Part shown: in pieces, positions 2-13,129 of the stretch
Layout of the letters: every line of letters starts with the position of its first letter
Position numbering within the stretch: the first letter of the stretch is position 1
Assembly (NCBI GenBank): GCA_016840095.1
Contig: JAEOSZ010000047.1
Location: 1-43,524 of the forward strand
Length of the DNA stretch: 43,524 bases
DNA from: Candidatus Heimdallarchaeota archaeon
GTDB lineage: Archaea; Asgardarchaeota; Heimdallarchaeia; Heimdallarchaeales; Heimdallarchaeaceae
Direction of reading: 5' to 3'
Position numbers and translations under genes: made by a program
The notes under the pieces: model-generated
The model's database searches: none
What the model was told of the DNA's origin: nothing
The model's input: the letters and a program-made list of their open reading frames with translations, nothing else

Positions 2-430
2 GTACCTTTCATTAGTAAAGGCAGAGTTGTTTATTCCTATAGTTTTGTTGAAGATGTTATTGAAACTTTGATAAAAATGGAAGAAAGCGACAAATCAAAT
101 GGGGAAATTTTCAATCATAATAGTTATCTGATTGAAAGAAGAGAACTGTTTGAAACAGCTGCAAAAATATGTAAAGTAGAACTAAAGACTTTCAATCTCA
201 ATTATAGTATAGCAATGATAATTGGTTTCTTTGGAGAATTACAATGGAAACTTCTCAAGAAAAGACCTTTGTTAGATAGATATCGAGTAAAACAAATGGG
301 TAAGCCAAGAATGTTAAGCAATAAGAAAATAGAAGAATTATTAGAAATTACTCCAAAAAAATCGTTCGAAGAAGCATTAAGAGAGACCTATTCCTGGTAT
401 TTGAAAAACAAAAGAGAACAAGAAAGATGA
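2..430 (+). CDS. NAD-dependent epimerase/dehydratase (extended SDR), C-terminal part; 5'-truncated by window edge
   Basis: Frame is open from base 2 (VPFISKGRVVYSYSFVEDVIETL...GEIFN...LSNKKIEELL..TPKKSFEEALRETYSWY), matching the typical C-terminal pattern of extended SDRs. Confidence 0.75.
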   Translation, partial: VPFISKGRVVYSYSFVEDVIETLIKMEESDKSNGEIFNHNSYLIERRELFETAAKICKVELKTFNLNYSIAMIIGFFGELQWKLLKKRPLLDRYRVKQMGKPRMLSNKKIEELLEITPKKSFEEALRETYSWYLKNKREQER

Positions 431-1818: not shown

Positions 1819-3066
1819 TCATGTTTTTGCTTCTTCTTCTGTTTCGTATGTTATCTCACAAATTCTGTGTTTGCTTTTTAGAAGCGAAACTGGAACTTTA
1901 CTTGAATCTCTTATCCATTTTTCACAGGAATTGCAAATTACATCATTTGGATATCTCCAGTAATTGCAGACAACTAGAAATTTTACTTCTTCTTCAGTTT
2001 CTTGAATAAAATGATCTGAAATGAATGGAGCCTTATTGAAAAGCTGAATCAACCTTATCATGGGATCGAAATCATAGTAGAATTGTTCGCCAATATCATC
2101 TTTGATGAAATCCATAGTTTTTTGTCTATCCTCAATTGCCATTTCTCTAATAGTTTGATCCTCTCTATACGACGTAATTTCTCTATTTGAACCTCCCGGA
2201 GCTATTTGGAAGATGCAATCCTTTACGTAACTATATTCTGAAGCGCATCTCATCTCATCACAGATAATAGGTTCATCTAGAATCTTACTGAAAACTGCTT
2301 CCAACATTCCTTCAACAAAAGCGCAAGTCTTTGTAGCAATTACACCCAATGATTCTGTCCAAATTGAGCTATCTAGAGAAACTGTTGCTACTTTTTCTTC
2401 AGGGTCAAAATGAAGAATATTGATGTTTCCCCATCTGGAAATGATTGGAGATTTAACCAAGGCATCCAAATAGGTTCTTAGATTCTCAAATTCCCCTTCA
2501 TAGATTTGAGTCATAACTTGTCTTCCAGCTTCATAACCTATCTTTCCAAGAATTTGAGAAGTGGCATCCTTTGCACCCTCGAATTGTCCATAAAATAATT
2601 CTTGAAAGATATTTATTGCGTTCTCTCTTAAAGAGTTTAAACATGTTTCGACTTCAGGAAAATCATCTAGAACTGGATTAGAATAAGTTATTATAATGAA
2701 CATCTCAGAAAGCATCAACAGCTTACTAATTGTTTTCGACATCTCCTCCTCAAGAGATGAGATAGTAAGATATTCTGTTATAGTGGGATCAAAAATAACA
2801 AATGAAATCATAAATTGTTCAACCCCTCCTCGTGCCATAGGATTTGGAATAGAGAAAAACATACTAGAATATACAACATTTGCCATTGCATTGACTATTG
2901 CTTTCATTTCTTGAAGGAAATTGAAATCCATTAATCTAGTCAATGAGGCTGTAATTCTTGGATCTTGTATCTCAGCTACATTGAATAGTAGTCTGGGACC
3001 CAACCTCTGATCAAAATGAAATAACATCACATTGATCCTGTTTCTCAAATCTACTCTTTCAGTCAT
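1819..3066 (-). CDS. uDENN/longin (folliculin/SMCR8-like) - V4R domain fusion protein with Cys-rich C-terminal domain
   Basis: N-terminal MLFHFDQRLGP and FSIPNPMARGGVEQFMISF motifs. Central V4R pattern LGKIGYEAG...WG...C(AFVEG)...E.RC...C.F. Confidence 0.7.
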   Translation of the reverse strand: MTERVDLRNRINVMLFHFDQRLGPRLLFNVAEIQDPRITASLTRLMDFNFLQEMKAIVNAMANVVYSSMFFSIPNPMARGGVEQFMISFVIFDPTITEYLTISSLEEEMSKTISKLLMLSEMFIIITYSNPVLDDFPEVETCLNSLRENAINIFQELFYGQFEGAKDATSQILGKIGYEAGRQVMTQIYEGEFENLRTYLDALVKSPIISRWGNINILHFDPEEKVATVSLDSSIWTESLGVIATKTCAFVEGMLEAVFSKILDEPIICDEMRCASEYSYVKDCIFQIAPGGSNREITSYREDQTIREMAIEDRQKTMDFIKDDIGEQFYYDFDPMIRLIQLFNKAPFISDHFIQETEEEVKFLVVCNYWRYPNDVICNSCEKWIRDSSKVPVSLLKSKHRICEITYETEEEAKT

Positions 3067-4123
3067 CTGTTATCATCTTTTTTGAGGCATAAATATATGC
3101 TAAACTAAACGAGGGATTTATTTCAGCAGTTTTGATTATATCTGATGCTTTACTTATATCCTTGTATTCATTCTTCTCCATAAGATATTGGTAAAGTATG
3201 TTGGATCCAATACCTGTGATTATTATTTTATCTAGTTGATATTCTTCCATTTTTTTCTTTATGAGTCTGTTTATCTTTTCTAGCATTCTTACTTTAAGTA
3301 AATATGCTATTTTGATTAAATCTTGCTCATGAAAACAATCATCAACAATACAGAACATGCTTTTTATCCTGTTTAAAGCATCTTCTTTGAATTTAGCCTT
3401 TTTATCAGGAGTATTAGTAATATAGTCTGATGGTTGAATATCTTCAGTTACAAGAAAAACATCAGCTGTAATAGCATGGGTTTCAAATGGAAGATTATAT
3501 GTCTCTCCGTTGTATTCAAAGTTAGGTTGAATGAAAGCTGCATTTGTTTCCATTAATCCGTAGAAAATTAGCTCATCATTCTTCATCCTTTCATGATCTG
3601 ATTTTGAATTTGAGAGAATCTCTCCCTCTCGAATAGGAATAAAACTAGTAGTTCTTGTTGAAAAATCAACTACTAAACCTTCATGTTTTGTCATTTTCCA
3701 TAAGCCTTTACCCAATGCTTTCCAACCTACAGAAACAACTTGTGATGGGTTTTCTAATGCTTGTTTAATTGTAACAAATTCACCATCATGTGTATAGAGA
3801 ACTATATTTGCAGGATGTATGAAATTTGTAACAGAGTTGATGATAAATTCTATTGTTTCTTTTGCAGATGCAAAGAGAGGACTGGTTGTAGTCAAAATAA
3901 ATTTGCGAATATTGTAATCAGCATAAGATCGTAAAATAGTCTTTAGTTCTCCTTCAAGTTCTTGTCTTCTAGTTCTTAAGGGTAGGTAAATCCTTTGAGA
4001 ATGAAACGGTTCTTCTGGATGAGAAGGATCAACTATAACTATCTTAAGAGATGTAACTCCAAAATCCAGTACTGCGATATTTTTTTTGTTTACATTAAAG
4101 CTAGTTGTTTGGTTAGTTGCCAT
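3059..4123 (-). CDS. Hydantoinase/oxoprolinase-family ASKHA protein (MfnF / H4MPT-linked C1-pathway-like), motif-degenerate
   Basis: Ordered motifs DFGVTSLK, YLPL, VVDFSTRTTSFIPI, D.ERM...EL.F.G, E..AITADV, TPD, ITGIGS. Overlaps the next gene by 8 bp (ATGACTGA). Confidence 0.75.
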   Translation of the reverse strand: MATNQTTSFNVNKKNIAVLDFGVTSLKIVIVDPSHPEEPFHSQRIYLPLRTRRQELEGELKTILRSYADYNIRKFILTTTSPLFASAKETIEFIINSVTNFIHPANIVLYTHDGEFVTIKQALENPSQVVSVGWKALGKGLWKMTKHEGLVVDFSTRTTSFIPIREGEILSNSKSDHERMKNDELIFYGLMETNAAFIQPNFEYNGETYNLPFETHAITADVFLVTEDIQPSDYITNTPDKKAKFKEDALNRIKSMFCIVDDCFHEQDLIKIAYLLKVRMLEKINRLIKKKMEEYQLDKIIITGIGSNILYQYLMEKNEYKDISKASDIIKTAEINPSFSLAYIYASKKMITDD

Positions 4124-4170: not shown

Positions 4171-4827
4171 TCAACGTCTTTTCCTAAATCCAGCCCCTTC
4201 TGGCTCTTCATCAAAATCCTCTAACTTCTTGAGTTTCTTTGATTTAGCTAGTTCCTTTTCTTTCTTAGCTAACTCTGGAAATTCTTCCATTATGTTGGTA
4301 GTAAATTTTGCTTTTGGATGCATATGTCTTATATAAAGACAAATTTCTGATAAATCTTCATTAGAAATAAATTCACCGAAGAAGAACTCTTTTCCATCCC
4401 TGAGCTGGACTACTAGCATAGCTTTATTTTTGTACTTTTTCCACATATCTAAAGATAATTTTCTTGGAATTCTAGAGAGTCCATATCTTCTTAGTTCTTT
4501 GATTCGTATGGTCCCTTTCTTCGTTGCATATCCTGTCATCAGAAGAGGTGTTGAGCGATAGTGGATTTCAGTACCTTCAATCTTGATGAAATCCTTTGTA
4601 TAGGTTAATTCTCTATATGTTCTATTGCCAAAAATCAGAACAGGAAGTAAAGTTACTGCTGCAACTATCAAAGTTGTAGTTAAATCTATATCTTCATCTG
4701 GAGAGAGGAACACAAAAACTACAAAACTAGTTATCATAACCATACTGAAAAGAAGATTAAGAATAAAGTCCTTCCAACCAAATCTGGTTGCATTCTTAAC
4801 TAGAGTTACATCGTTTTCTTCACTCAT
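4171..4827 (-). CDS. Membrane protein, 2 TM helices plus PH-like beta domain and charged tail
   Basis: Two hydrophobic segments followed by beta-rich region (FIKIEGTEIHYR...IRIKEL...MLVVQLRDGKEFFF) and a terminal helix, as in bacterial-type PH domains. Confidence 0.55.
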   Translation of the reverse strand: MSEENDVTLVKNATRFGWKDFILNLLFSMVMITSFVVFVFLSPDEDIDLTTTLIVAAVTLLPVLIFGNRTYRELTYTKDFIKIEGTEIHYRSTPLLMTGYATKKGTIRIKELRRYGLSRIPRKLSLDMWKKYKNKAMLVVQLRDGKEFFFGEFISNEDLSEICLYIRHMHPKAKFTTNIMEEFPELAKKEKELAKSKKLKKLEDFDEEPEGAGFRKRR

Positions 4828-4833
4828 AATCTT

Positions 4834-5829
4834 CTACCTTTTTCTATATTTCTTAATGGTCTGGGATATAACTTCAATATTTTCATCAGATGCAGTTATT
4901 GGAATTACACATCCTGGTGCAATAACTAATCTATTGTTGTTCTCTTCTGATTTTCTTAGCGATTCAAGAATATTCTTCCTGATATCATCAGGTTTTCCAT
5001 CAACTAATGTTTGTGTTTCATCAATACCGGCAAGCAATCCCTTAGGAAAAATACTTGCAGCTTCATCGATTTCAGGCCATGTTAATTGATCATGCCAATT
5101 CAAAGCATCAACGTCCATTAACTCTGCTGCTTCTTTAAAACGGATATCTTGACCATGAACATGCATTACAATGAATTCAGTTTTTCCTTTAATTTTTGAA
5201 ATAAGTTTCTTAAGAAATGGGATTTCAAATTTGAGAACCTCTTCCCAAGGTAATTCAGTTTTTCTGAAATGCTGGGATGCAAGAAAAAGACCATCAGCAC
5301 CTGCATCTATAGATGATTTTGCAAATTCAATGATATCATTTGTAATAGTAAAAAGAGATTCTCTGATTAACTCTGGCTTTTTACTTATATTAGAAACTAA
5401 ATTGGTATCCATTTTTGAAGCTACCATGAGAGGGGAAAACAAAGTCATCATTTTTGGTAGGCTTTCAAGTTCTTTACTAATTCGTTCAATAGCTTTCAGC
5501 TGCTTTCCTAATTCTCCTTCTCCAGAATCCACTGATTCAACAGTTTCCCAGTCATCTACTGAGGTTATACAACACTTATCACATCTTGTGCTTCCAGTAA
5601 TCGGGTCATAGTCACTTGCTACGATACATCCATAGTCAACAACAGGAAATCTACCATGAGGAGAAATTTTCATTAAATCGAATTCATGTTTTTTGTAGAA
5701 GTCTACGTGAATTTCAGCTAATGCATAAGGATCTCTGTCTATATCTGGGAAATGCTTCCATAAACTGAAAAGAGGTCTTTCTTCATTTTGACCCTTAAAC
5801 GTTTGGAGAAGGAGTTCAAGCTTGTCCAT
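4834..5829 (-). CDS. Uroporphyrinogen decarboxylase (URO-D/MtaA-like) family protein
   Basis: LWKHFP, FDLMKI, TLFSP, AGADGLFLA, MHVHG, LNW, GGID-like (AGID) and IAPGC motifs. Lacks the HemE RQAGR motif. Confidence 0.85.
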   Translation of the reverse strand: MDKLELLLQTFKGQNEERPLFSLWKHFPDIDRDPYALAEIHVDFYKKHEFDLMKISPHGRFPVVDYGCIVASDYDPITGSTRCDKCCITSVDDWETVESVDSGEGELGKQLKAIERISKELESLPKMMTLFSPLMVASKMDTNLVSNISKKPELIRESLFTITNDIIEFAKSSIDAGADGLFLASQHFRKTELPWEEVLKFEIPFLKKLISKIKGKTEFIVMHVHGQDIRFKEAAELMDVDALNWHDQLTWPEIDEAASIFPKGLLAGIDETQTLVDGKPDDIRKNILESLRKSEENNNRLVIAPGCVIPITASDENIEVISQTIKKYRKR

Positions 5830-10159: not shown

Positions 10160-11785
10160 TTAATAATCCTCGTCCATTCCGCCAGGACCACCTGGAGGCA
10201 TACCTGGACCACCAGATAATTCTTTAGCAGCGATAACATCATCAATTCTAAGAATCATTTCTGCAGCTTCAGCAGCACTGCTAATAGCTTGTTTCTTTAC
10301 AGAAATTGGCTCAAAGACATTGAGTTTAGCCATATCATCTACTTTTGCTTTGAATGGATTAACACCATAAACATATCCATCTTTTGAATGTTGAACATGT
10401 AGTTCAGATAGAACATCAATTGGGTCTAACCCTGCATTTTCTGCCAATGTTCTTGGAATGATTTCCATTGCTTTTGCAAACTTTTCAATTGCTAACTGAA
10501 CTTTGCTGGTATGACCCATTGCAAACTCACCAAGCTTTTGACTAATCCTTAATTCTGGAGCTCCTCCGCCTGGAACTACTTTTTTGTCATGAATTACTTG
10601 ACGAACAACACATAAGGCATCATGAATTGCTCTGTCTGCTTCATCAACTATCATTTCTGTTCCACCTCGAATTATCATAGAGACAGCTTTAGGATTATCA
10701 CATCCAGTAACGAATATCATATTATCGTCACCAATAGATTTCTCTTCAGCTACTTGGGCTTTGCCAATGTAACTCTCAAGATCATCTAAACTAGTTGAGA
10801 TTTTTGCACCAGTGGCTTTGGCTAGTTTTTCCATATCGCTTTTCTTGATTCTTCTAACAGCACCAATACCTTGCTTAGCAAGATAGTGTTGAATGATGTC
10901 ATCAATTCCTTTCTGACAAAGAACAACATTAGCACCTGAAGCGATGATTTTATCAGCCATTTCTTTAAGCATGTCATGTTCATTATCAAGAAATGCTTGA
11001 ATTTGGTCTGGACTTGTAATGTTAATCTTAGCATCAATTTCGGTTTTACTTAATTCTAAACCTTTGTCTAACAAAAGAATCTTTGCATTCTCAATTTTCT
11101 TAGGCATATCTGCATGAACAAATTCTTTGTCTAGAATGATACCATCAATTAATTCAGTATCAACTAAGCTTCCACCTTTTTTCTTCTGAATTTGAATATT
11201 GTCAATATCAGCGAACATTTCTCCATCTTTTTCCTCTGCAACAGATTTAACTGCTTTAACTATGAGTTTGGATAGAGCACCTTTTTCTCCACTAACTATT
11301 TTAGAAGACATAGAAGTTTCTGCAACTGCTTCAAGGATCTTATCGTCCTCAAATGAAACATCTTGAGCCATCTCTTCTAAGATTTTATCAGCTTGAAATC
11401 GGGCTAATTTGTAACCTTCAACTATTGAACTAGGATGAATATCCATATCTAATAATTCCTCAGCTTGTTTGAGTAACTCACCAGCAATAACTACAACGCT
11501 GGTAGTACCATCTCCTGTTTCTTGATCTTGAGTCTTAGCAAGATCAATAACAAATTTGGCAGCAGGGTGGCTTACTTCAATTTCCTTTAGGATAGTAGCT
11601 CCATCGTTGGTAACAGTGGTGTCACCAAAATTGTCAATGAGCATTTTATCCATACCTTTAGGACCTAGTGCTGAACGGATGGCTTCAGAAACAGCTCTAG
11701 CAGCTGTGATATTATTTCTCTGAGCATCTTTTCCTCTAGTTCTTTCGGTTCCTTCCTTTAAGATATAAACAGGTTGGCCGTACAT
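10160..11785 (-). CDS. ths: Thermosome subunit (group II chaperonin)
   Basis: LGPKGMDKM, TNDGATIL, GDGTTS, GGGAPE motifs; Gly/Pro/Met-rich tail; Shine-Dalgarno-like GAGGT at 11793-11797. Confidence 0.98.
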   Translation of the reverse strand: MYGQPVYILKEGTERTRGKDAQRNNITAARAVSEAIRSALGPKGMDKMLIDNFGDTTVTNDGATILKEIEVSHPAAKFVIDLAKTQDQETGDGTTSVVVIAGELLKQAEELLDMDIHPSSIVEGYKLARFQADKILEEMAQDVSFEDDKILEAVAETSMSSKIVSGEKGALSKLIVKAVKSVAEEKDGEMFADIDNIQIQKKKGGSLVDTELIDGIILDKEFVHADMPKKIENAKILLLDKGLELSKTEIDAKINITSPDQIQAFLDNEHDMLKEMADKIIASGANVVLCQKGIDDIIQHYLAKQGIGAVRRIKKSDMEKLAKATGAKISTSLDDLESYIGKAQVAEEKSIGDDNMIFVTGCDNPKAVSMIIRGGTEMIVDEADRAIHDALCVVRQVIHDKKVVPGGGAPELRISQKLGEFAMGHTSKVQLAIEKFAKAMEIIPRTLAENAGLDPIDVLSELHVQHSKDGYVYGVNPFKAKVDDMAKLNVFEPISVKKQAISSAAEAAEMILRIDDVIAAKELSGGPGMPPGGPGGMDEDY

Positions 11786-11843
11786 TTTATTAACCTCTTG
11801 TAAAGTTTAATAAGTATTAAATCAAGACATGTGTCTATTCATT

Positions 11844-11860
11844 GATATATAATCTTTACG
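11844..11860 (-). promoter_or_regulatory. Putative BRE/TATA promoter of the thermosome gene
   Basis: Minus strand reads cgtaaagaTTATATAT about 60 nt upstream of the ATG. Confidence 0.5.
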
Positions 11861-12148
11861 CTTTTGTAAAAATCTAGAAATCTTCCAAAAATAACTTTTG
11901 ATAATATAAAACAGCTGACTACTCATATTCATAATTTGATGTGTAGTCAGCAAATAAATTGTGAGAAAACCTTTACAAAAAACCCTCTAATCTCAATTGC
12001 GGATTATTTTACTAGATATTGACAAAAATCTCCTAGCTTCATTCTTTACCTATCAGCAAATATTTTTAAGAGTCGAAGTGAATCTTATTTTGAAGGGGTT
12101 TTCTGACGATTCGCTATTGGCTATGAATCAGAGCAGACGTGAGCAACA

Positions 12149-13129
12149 TTGTTGGGGTCAAAAGAAAGTAATGAATGGGTATCATCAAGCAGAGATTTAT
12201 CTGTCTCAATTGCAGGTTTAGATGGAGTCGGAAAAACTGCTATTGTTAACAAGCTTTTGAGTGATGAAATTACAGAAACCTATTCAACATATGGTATAAA
12301 TCAAGAGATTGTTAAAATCAATGGATTGAATCTTGGTTTAACTGATCTAGGTGGGAAAGAACCCTTTAGAAATTCTTTATGGGAAAGTTATATTTCTCGT
12401 TCAGATGCTTTGATTTATGTTGTTGATGCAACTAAAGAAGACAAGCTAGATGAGTCACAACAATGGTTTGTTCGTGCTCTTAAGTGGATTAAGGACGAAT
12501 CCCCCGTTTTAGTTTTAATCAACACATGGGATCAACCTGTTAATGAAGAAGTAATCAAGTCCATTAATAGTATTTTCCAGAGTCCAAAAAATGGACATCC
12601 TATTGAATTTATCTCTATCTCCCCTTTATCTGGTAAAAACATCCATAAAACAGTAGACTGGTTAGCAAATACAATCATTACTAATCTGATAAGTGCAGGA
12701 ATTACTGTTGATTACTTTGTTGCTTATATTAAAACAGAACAAGGCTTGGTAGAAGCTCGAATAAGAACAGCTGATGACAAAGTTCTAGATAAAGGATTGT
12801 TTCCTGTAATTAGATATAAGTTCGCTTCCAGCACTGAATCTATTCTCGAATACATGAGGATTGGAGGAAGACAAATTGTTACAGCTGCAGATAGTCAAAC
12901 CTCATGCTGGTTAGTTACAACCAAAAATGATGAGTTCAAAGGAACTAATCTATTGATGAAATTATTAACTGAATTCATCAAGGAGATCCATGGATTAAGG
13001 GCTCAGAAAGGAACTGACTTATCAGAATCAGATTTAACCAGCTATCTTGTAAAATATATGATTGACAATCAGACATTCTGGTCAGAAACCCAACAACCTA
13101 TGTTTGAAATATCCTTCATTAACGAGTGA
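12149..13129 (+). CDS. Arf/Sar-family small GTPase fused to a C-terminal longin-like domain
   Basis: G1 GLDGVGKT, G2 STYGIN, G3 DLGGK followed by FR..W..Y, IYVVDA, variant G4 NTWD, G5 SPLSG. C-terminal ~140 aa has a beta-beta-alpha-beta-beta-beta-alpha-alpha hydrophobic pattern. TTG start. Confidence 0.85.
   Translation: MLGSKESNEWVSSSRDLSVSIAGLDGVGKTAIVNKLLSDEITETYSTYGINQEIVKINGLNLGLTDLGGKEPFRNSLWESYISRSDALIYVVDATKEDKLDESQQWFVRALKWIKDESPVLVLINTWDQPVNEEVIKSINSIFQSPKNGHPIEFISISPLSGKNIHKTVDWLANTIITNLISAGITVDYFVAYIKTEQGLVEARIRTADDKVLDKGLFPVIRYKFASSTESILEYMRIGGRQIVTAADSQTSCWLVTTKNDEFKGTNLLMKLLTEFIKEIHGLRAQKGTDLSESDLTSYLVKYMIDNQTFWSETQQPMFEISFINE

Follow-up and report, generated by a model that had tools for sequence, protein, structure and literature searches.

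A conserved three-domain longin-V4R protein of Heimdallarchaeaceae, a possible signal-controlled regulator of small GTPases

The window studied here is a 43,524-nucleotide stretch of DNA (G+C ~33%) from a Candidatus Heimdallarchaeota archaeon (assembly GCA_016840095.1, contig JAEOSZ010000047.1, positions 1 to 43,524), and it encodes a 415-residue protein, called here the longin-V4R protein, in which an N-terminal longin-type domain is followed by a V4R domain and a C-terminal module with four cysteines (C4). The gene is a conserved core gene of one Heimdall family, the Heimdallarchaeaceae. By fold and motifs, assignment of the N-terminal domain to the longins of the folliculin (FLCN)/NPRL2/SMCR8 class is partly supported, and the domain carries the glycine-proline (GP) motif and loop arginine (Arg79) of longins that act as GTPase-activating proteins (GAPs). 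By analogy with these, the best available mechanism is that the longin-V4R protein would be a signal-controlled regulator of a small GTPase, a reading for which we judge the case to be evenly balanced. The original prediction from which this analysis started had proposed such a sensor-coupled regulator.

A core gene of the Heimdallarchaeaceae

The open reading frame (ORF), the codon for Arg79 and the N-terminal stretches that the original prediction had quoted are all present in the sequence: MLFHFDQRLGPRLLF begins at residue 14, and FFSIPNPMARGGVEQFMISF is found in the same protein. Because residues 1-13 are kept in homologues, M1 can be taken as the true start. A word-indexed search returned 26 full-length homologues at 57-93% identity, and an exhaustive phmmer search of 1.8 billion representatives added only one further full-length relative, the diverged P0028 (428 residues, 26-27% identity, same three parts), besides proteins in which the match was confined to the N-terminal 100-150 residues.

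We surveyed 400 genomes of the phylum and found the full longin-V4R-C4 architecture in 30/30 genomes of the family, as a single intact copy in most of them and cut by contig ends in several. Outside the family, it was found once, in diverged form, in a genome of the sister family (G010), and the remaining genomes gave matches to the N-terminal domain only. With 26 full-length homologues and its presence in all 30 family genomes, a chance origin of the ORF is implausible.

The first 100 residues are near-invariant within the family, and every one of the closest relatives carries a Heimdallarchaeota or Heimdallarchaeaceae label, one of them coming from Heimdall AB_125. Homologues are named "hypothetical", "V4R domain-containing", "predicted hydrocarbon binding protein" or "4-vinyl reductase" in databases, none of these names referring to a longin, and the H. 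endolithica orthologue is an "Uncharacterized protein" in UniProt. A scan for sigma-70 promoters and terminators gave sites no commoner than in shuffled sequence, such a consensus being inapplicable to an archaeon.

The N-terminal domain is modelled as a longin

A model of residues 1-165, built on an alignment of 23 sequences that included distant relatives, reached a predicted local distance difference test (pLDDT) score of 83 and a predicted template modelling (pTM) score of 0.81. Its topology, beta-beta-alpha-beta-beta-beta-alpha-alpha with a five-stranded sheet, is that of the longin fold. The best Foldseek matches in the PDB were the longin of a Lokiarchaeal roadblock-longin protein and NPRL2 of GATOR1, along with FLCN (from the active GAP complex), FNIP2, Lst4 and Npr2, followed lower in the list by DENND10 and then by SMCR8/C9orf72 (E range 1.6e-4 to about 1e-2). 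The predicted longin nature of this domain is thus borne out by the model, with FLCN, FNIP/Lst4 and NPRL2 among the top structural matches.

Sequence comparison was silent on this relationship. Pfam at E<=10 matched the longin-V4R protein with V4R alone and gave no Folliculin/NPR2 match, and HMMER profiles of the N-terminal domain (A3, 4 sequences; A5, 23 sequences) run against all PDB sequences returned chance matches only, with no FLCN, NPRL2 or SMCR8 chain at E<=10. Moreover, the longin is followed by the V4R domain and the C4 module, not by DENN as in FLCN and SMCR8 or by the C-terminal domain specific to NPRL2.

The GP motif and Arg79 are invariant in diverse Asgard longins

The motifs were examined in an alignment of 23 sequences, made of N-terminal-domain matches cut from 20 other Asgard genomes, the domain of the window and two stand-alone proteins. 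At 18-27% identity to the window domain, only F18, G23, P24 and R79 were invariant, A78 and G80 being near-invariant. In the model, strand b2 starts with G23-P24, and the b4-b5 loop (here NPMARGG) carries Arg79, just as it carries Arg78 in NPRL2. Four NPRL2 chains aligned from residue 5/6 to 160/161 with model residues 7-159, so Arg79 comes to stand at most one or two residues from NPRL2 Arg78, as judged by topology and numbering offset only. Arg78 is the reported arginine finger of NPRL2, and arginine fingers have been confirmed structurally for SMCR8 (R147 on ARF1) and FLCN (R164 on RagC). The conservation that the original prediction expected of Arg79 extends to all 23 homologues, and we regard this residue as a candidate arginine finger.

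The GP motif together with an arginine finger has been described as a signature specific to the catalytic longins FLCN, NPRL2, SMCR8 and C9orf72, one also borne by Heimdallarchaeial longins (PMC12290439). The longin could nonetheless be a GTPase-binding platform, exchange factor or effector, as in TRAPP, Mon1-Ccz1, DENN or SRX-SRbeta, with the arginine serving in binding or structure. We consider this unlikely, as the GP motif and loop arginine are absent from non-GAP longins such as adaptins, TRAPP and DENND (PMC12290439), and no polar or turn position of the Asgard alignment other than the GP motif and Arg79 is invariant.

Within its own genome, the longin profile otherwise matched only the tails of ORFs of ~1600 residues and one weak candidate of 366 residues. 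The latter (L067, G000:C29:34883-35980, plus strand), which has no Pfam family, matches weakly at its N-terminus (E 0.014), where GP is replaced by GV and the position of the arginine reads KSKRS; it could be a non-catalytic partner longin. The ~1600-residue ORFs are four in number, three in tandem on contig C160 and one on C74, and match weakly (G000:C160:10414-15270, plus strand, which is L066; C160 5062-5253 and 10031-10183; C74 2319-2471). L066, the one inspected, bears a GP/ARGG longin signature at its extreme C-terminus (IFDQRKGP ... NKMARGGFENLSLIV) and has only a weak Big_13 match in Pfam.

Related longins are fused to Arf-family GTPases and sensor domains

Beside stand-alone proteins of 189-223 residues, the Asgard homologues of the longin include several kinds of fusion. 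Strong cases of fusion to Arf-family GTPase domains are P0032, P0034, L063, L049 and L054, and weaker or degenerate ones are P0037, P0040, L048, L050, L052, L055 and L065. Other longins occur with PAS-GAF-PAS (L057, L062 and L056) or with GNAT acetyltransferases (P0041-P0043). In an 844-residue protein of genome G169 (L058:314-2845, plus strand), a GP/Arg longin is followed by an Arf-family GTPase that is intact, by another copy of the longin and by three PAS domains, which unites a putative sensor, regulator and GTPase in one chain.

These Arf and PAS/GAF fusions are the best contextual evidence that the longin may work on or with Arf-like GTPases, commonly under the control of a small-molecule sensor, and the idea of a sensor-coupled GTPase regulator gains context from them. 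Many longin-Arf fusions of ~325-335 residues (P0037, P0040; L046, L047) have degenerate P-loops, such as MFDFSKGDKSQ and MFDFFADGESQ, or give no Pfam GTPase match, which suggests pseudo-GTPase partners; two such genes stand in tandem on G201:C114.

The middle domain resembles bacterial sensor V4R domains

Pfam matched V4R to residues 229-276 (E 1.6e-6, 28.5 bits, slightly below the 31-bit cut-off), and the same stretch scored 32.1 bits, above the cut-off, in the genome-wide search. Alongside this match to PF02830, the domain has a V4R/Bet3-type fold. In 20 homologues at 57-93% identity, C248, C269, E271, C274 and C284 are invariant; P0028 keeps E271, C274 and C284 with the same spacing, its first Cys being displaced by 2 and C269 lost. 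Since the zinc ligands of DmpR (Cys151, Glu172, Cys177 and Cys185) show the same Cys/Glu/Cys/Cys pattern, reading this set as a putative zinc site is reasonable, with C269 as a family-specific extra. A V4R domain with Cys/Glu/Cys/Cys ligands had been proposed at the outset, and the Pfam match, the invariance and the correspondence with DmpR all agree with it.

Among NCBIfam models, the V4R portion of MsvR, a regulator of methanogens, matches best, which raises the possibility of a thiol/redox or metal sensor in which the invariant cysteines, rather than a pocket, do the sensing. The five invariant Cys/Glu positions of the V4R and the four invariant Cys of the tail would suit such a sensor. On the other hand, the match covers only profile positions 129-236 and scores 33.7 bits against an equivalog cut-off of 220, the longin-V4R protein has no DNA-binding domain such as the N-terminal winged helix of MsvR, and in DmpR the equivalent of the Cys/Glu/Cys/Cys set is a structural zinc site. 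We give this proposal a slim chance as an alternative; as the nature of the input, redox or metal sensing is also compatible with a GTPase regulator.

A second proposal concerned TRAPP, whose core contains longin and Bet3-like subunits: the protein would be a one-chain forerunner of that core (longin plus Bet3 subunit) and a Rab exchange factor. The combination of a TRAPP_Bet3 profile match with nearest structures among Bet3, Trs31 and Trs33 was not found, the middle domain is closer to bacterial sensor V4R domains than to Bet3/TRAPPC3, and the longin is nearer the GAP type than the TRAPP type. The view of the protein as a longin-Bet3 Rosetta stone for TRAPP is a weak one, and we consider this explanation very improbable.

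A phmmer search of the PDB with the V4R part gave no useful match. Several structural alignments with Bet3-family proteins start at about residue 95, so the two C-terminal helices of the longin appear to be packed on the V4R core; in the model, this packing would offer a plausible route of coupling between longin and sensor. The sole other V4R protein detected in the genome is encoded by a 539-residue ORF, whose two V4R domains score 50 and 47 bits (G000:C93:16905-17750, minus strand).

The C-terminal module carries four invariant cysteines

The further cysteine-rich module foreseen after the V4R domain is indeed marked by C367, C378, C381 and C403, invariant in the same 20 homologues. P0028 keeps all four, and H400 is not kept there. 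The modelled secondary structure consists of helices followed by beta-beta-alpha-beta-beta, and the tail, judging from its cysteines, would most probably hold another structural zinc site. A structural search of the ESM Atlas with the module gave scores of 0.79-0.82, at noise level, hidden Markov models built on it detected no paralogous protein in the genome, and a word-indexed search for shorter proteins returned only fragments of longin-V4R family members; no relative beyond this family came to light. The module was also tried as a second V4R-like domain, and this was rejected for want of sequence support (hhalign against the V4R part, probability 0.15%).

A possible mechanism

As a signal-controlled regulator, the longin-V4R protein would be a soluble three-domain signalling protein, probably acting as a dimer. 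By analogy with FLCN, NPRL2 and SMCR8, its longin would dock where a small GTPase of the Arf- or Rag-like type holds its nucleotide, and Arg79, beside the GP motif, would be inserted into the GTPase and accelerate GTP hydrolysis. The V4R domain, with its putative structural zinc site and an enclosed pocket resembling those of bacterial phenol sensors, would most likely bind a small molecule, or sense redox via its cysteines. This input could then alter the availability of the longin face through the two C-terminal helices of the longin, and the four-Cys tail might serve assembly or partner binding.

In a more specific version, ligand gating and GAP action would reside together in one chain: the V4R domain would sense a metabolite and directly control the longin, whose arginine finger would act on a GTPase of the Rag/Arf-like kind. 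The protein could then be seen as a simple archaeal counterpart, possibly a forerunner, of eukaryotic FLCN/GATOR1 nutrient sensing, fixed in the core gene set of a single Heimdall family. This version is tentative, and in all its parts together we hold it to be on the unlikely side.

Gene neighbourhood and candidate GTPases

The longin-V4R gene is the last of a tightly spaced, co-directional four-gene cluster (Table 1). The stop of the MfnF-like gene directly upstream overlaps its start: ATGACTGA. The MfnF-like product scores far below both family cut-offs (177 vs 244 bits and 162 vs 520 bits) and may be a repurposed or pseudo-enzyme; for the URO-D protein, the NCBIfam MtaA/CmuA matches are likewise under the cut-off. 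The four-gene order is shared by four genera at 40-68% identity, with the MfnF-like gene adjoining the longin-V4R gene in all four. The cluster is missing around P0028, where Tsr3-like, AIR-synthase-like and EAP30 genes are found instead.

Table 1 Features of the longin-V4R gene and its surroundings in the window.
Feature	Residues	Position	Strand	Basis
Longin-V4R-C4 gene (P0001)	1-415	1819..3066	minus	415-residue ORF; ORF list and translation
Longin domain	1-160	2587..3066	minus	Predicted structure
Longin elements	b1 11-19, b2 23-29, a1 36-47, b3 56-59, b4 64-74, b5 82-92, a2 96-117, a3 137-159			
GP motif, start of strand b2	G23-P24	2995..3000	minus	Model; invariance in 23 diverse Asgard homologues
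Candidate arginine finger, codon CGA, b4-b5 loop NPMARGG	Arg79	2830..2832	minus	Sequence and model
V4R sensor-type domain	166-293	2188..2571	minus	
Putative zinc site of V4R	C248, (C269), E271, C274, C284	2215..2325	minus	Invariance; DmpR pattern
Alpha/beta four-Cys module	296-415 (C367, C378, C381, C403)	1822..2181	minus	
MfnF/TIGR03123 (Hydantoinase_A-type, actin-fold) paralogue, directly upstream		3059..4123	minus	Pfam and NCBIfam, below cut-offs
218-residue protein, hydrophobic segments, no family match		4171..4827	minus	Co-directional cluster member
URO-D/MtaA-CmuA-family protein, first cluster gene		4834..5829	minus	Pfam URO-D 1.3e-29
Arf-family GTPase, 326 residues, ~150-residue C-terminal extension		12149-13129	plus	

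This arrangement leads to another explanation, that the protein serves its gene cluster: the V4R domain would sense or carry a metabolite of the one-carbon (C1) pathway or a cofactor-like one, and the longin would serve only for dimerisation or to dock the protein on the products of the neighbouring genes, with no GTPase involved. The tight co-directional order in four genera and the overlap with the MfnF-like gene speak for it, as do the database name "predicted hydrocarbon binding protein" and a formate-tetrahydrofolate ligase near the longin-V4R gene in at least two other genera (L022:5841-7532, plus strand; L023:9926-11626, minus strand). Yet the cluster does not follow the diverged homologue P0028, and wider synteny (S25e, RadA) is also retained in two of the four genera, so the shared order may partly reflect little rearrangement. 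Moreover, this explanation leaves the invariance of the GP motif and Arg79 across GTPase-fused longins unaccounted for, and we accordingly lend it little credence. Immediately downstream of the longin-V4R gene, and on its strand, two other genera encode a zf-AN1 protein of ~330 residues (L022:7574-8581 and L024:7071-8051, both minus strand).

Regarding the substrate of a longin GAP, no GTPase gene adjoins the longin-V4R gene in the four genera, nor P0028. The original prediction had named the Arf-family GTPase of the window among the small GTPases to be modelled with the longin-V4R protein. This protein has DLGGK as its G3 motif, with Lys at the position of the catalytic Gln of Arf, and NTWD as its G4 motif, and its full-length orthologues occur in the same archaeal family only. 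The gene lies ~9 kb from the longin-V4R gene in two genera and is unlinked in others, weak evidence that we did not use; it is a candidate substrate that has no specific link to the longin-V4R gene. The genome holds 38 small-GTPase matches, seven of them of a "GTPase plus extension" type of 313-344 residues, which includes the Arf-family GTPase of the window and one tandem pair. In this pair, Arf-like GTPases of 340 and 331 residues with C-terminal extensions (G000:C165:10737-11225 and 11682-12179, plus strand, within L068), the layout recalls a Rag-type heterodimer pair.

Comparison with known systems

Eukaryotic longin GAPs comprise FLCN-FNIP2 for RagC/D, the NPRL2-NPRL3 pair of GATOR1 for RagA/B and SMCR8-C9orf72 for Arf. 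The longin-V4R protein differs from them in lacking DENN and NPRL2-specific domains, a known heterodimer partner and detectable sequence similarity, and in carrying its sensor domain within the same chain, its own GAP role being putative. To our knowledge, action on a GTPase has yet to be demonstrated for any Asgard longin.

Both this type of domain and its fusion have appeared in the literature before, and the high novelty implied by the original prediction has to be given up for the motif, for sensor fusions and for the Heimdall longin-TRAPPC3 fusion alike. Asgard longins of the Folliculin/SMCR8 type (Traffic 2025, PMC12290439) share with the present one the longin fold, the GP before or at strand 2, the loop arginine and their occurrence in Heimdallarchaeia, and a role as GAPs of ArfR or Rag-like GTPases has been suggested for them. 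The text of that paper on Asgard longins nowhere mentions V4R or "fused", whereas the longin-V4R protein is a fusion. FLCN-like proteins in Heimdall archaea had also been reported, and NPRL2-like longins fused to prokaryotic signal-transduction domains were described in Asgard (Liu et al., bioRxiv 10.1101/2020.10.19.343400). Those fusions are of the same general kind, in that a longin like those of GATOR1 and FLCN forms part of a sensor protein with several domains, but here the partner is V4R plus the C4 module, limited to Heimdallarchaeaceae and one sister-family genome.

A further published case is the Heimdall protein MBD3190748.1, in which a longin at the N-terminus is joined to a TRAPPC3-fold domain (Tran et al. 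2024, PMC10933270, Supplementary Fig. 10g); this fusion was taken to mean that longin, TRAPPC3 and GTPases are functionally connected. Both are Heimdall proteins combining a longin with a TRAPPC3/V4R-fold domain, though this accession is not among the listed cluster members of the longin-V4R family. An arginine finger and a third four-Cys module are not discussed in that paper, whereas the longin-V4R protein has this candidate finger and that module.

Relative to these reports, the present analysis adds a GAP-type signature in a longin-TRAPPC3-type fusion, a middle domain of the sensor V4R type, a third module with four cysteines, the status of a family core gene and a conserved neighbourhood. 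Beyond the literature there is little novelty of sequence, and the main value of the longin-V4R protein is as an object for experiment. Whether the arginine-finger longin GAPs (folliculin, GATOR1 and C9orf72-SMCR8) have a pre-eukaryotic origin has already been asked in print, and because this protein is small, predicted to be soluble, conserved and equipped with its own putative sensor, it is convenient for a direct test of that question. In the phenol-responsive activators PoxR, DmpR and MopR, with which identity is 12-17%, the V4R domain has an AAA+ sigma-54 activator as its output; in the longin-V4R protein, that place is taken by a longin.
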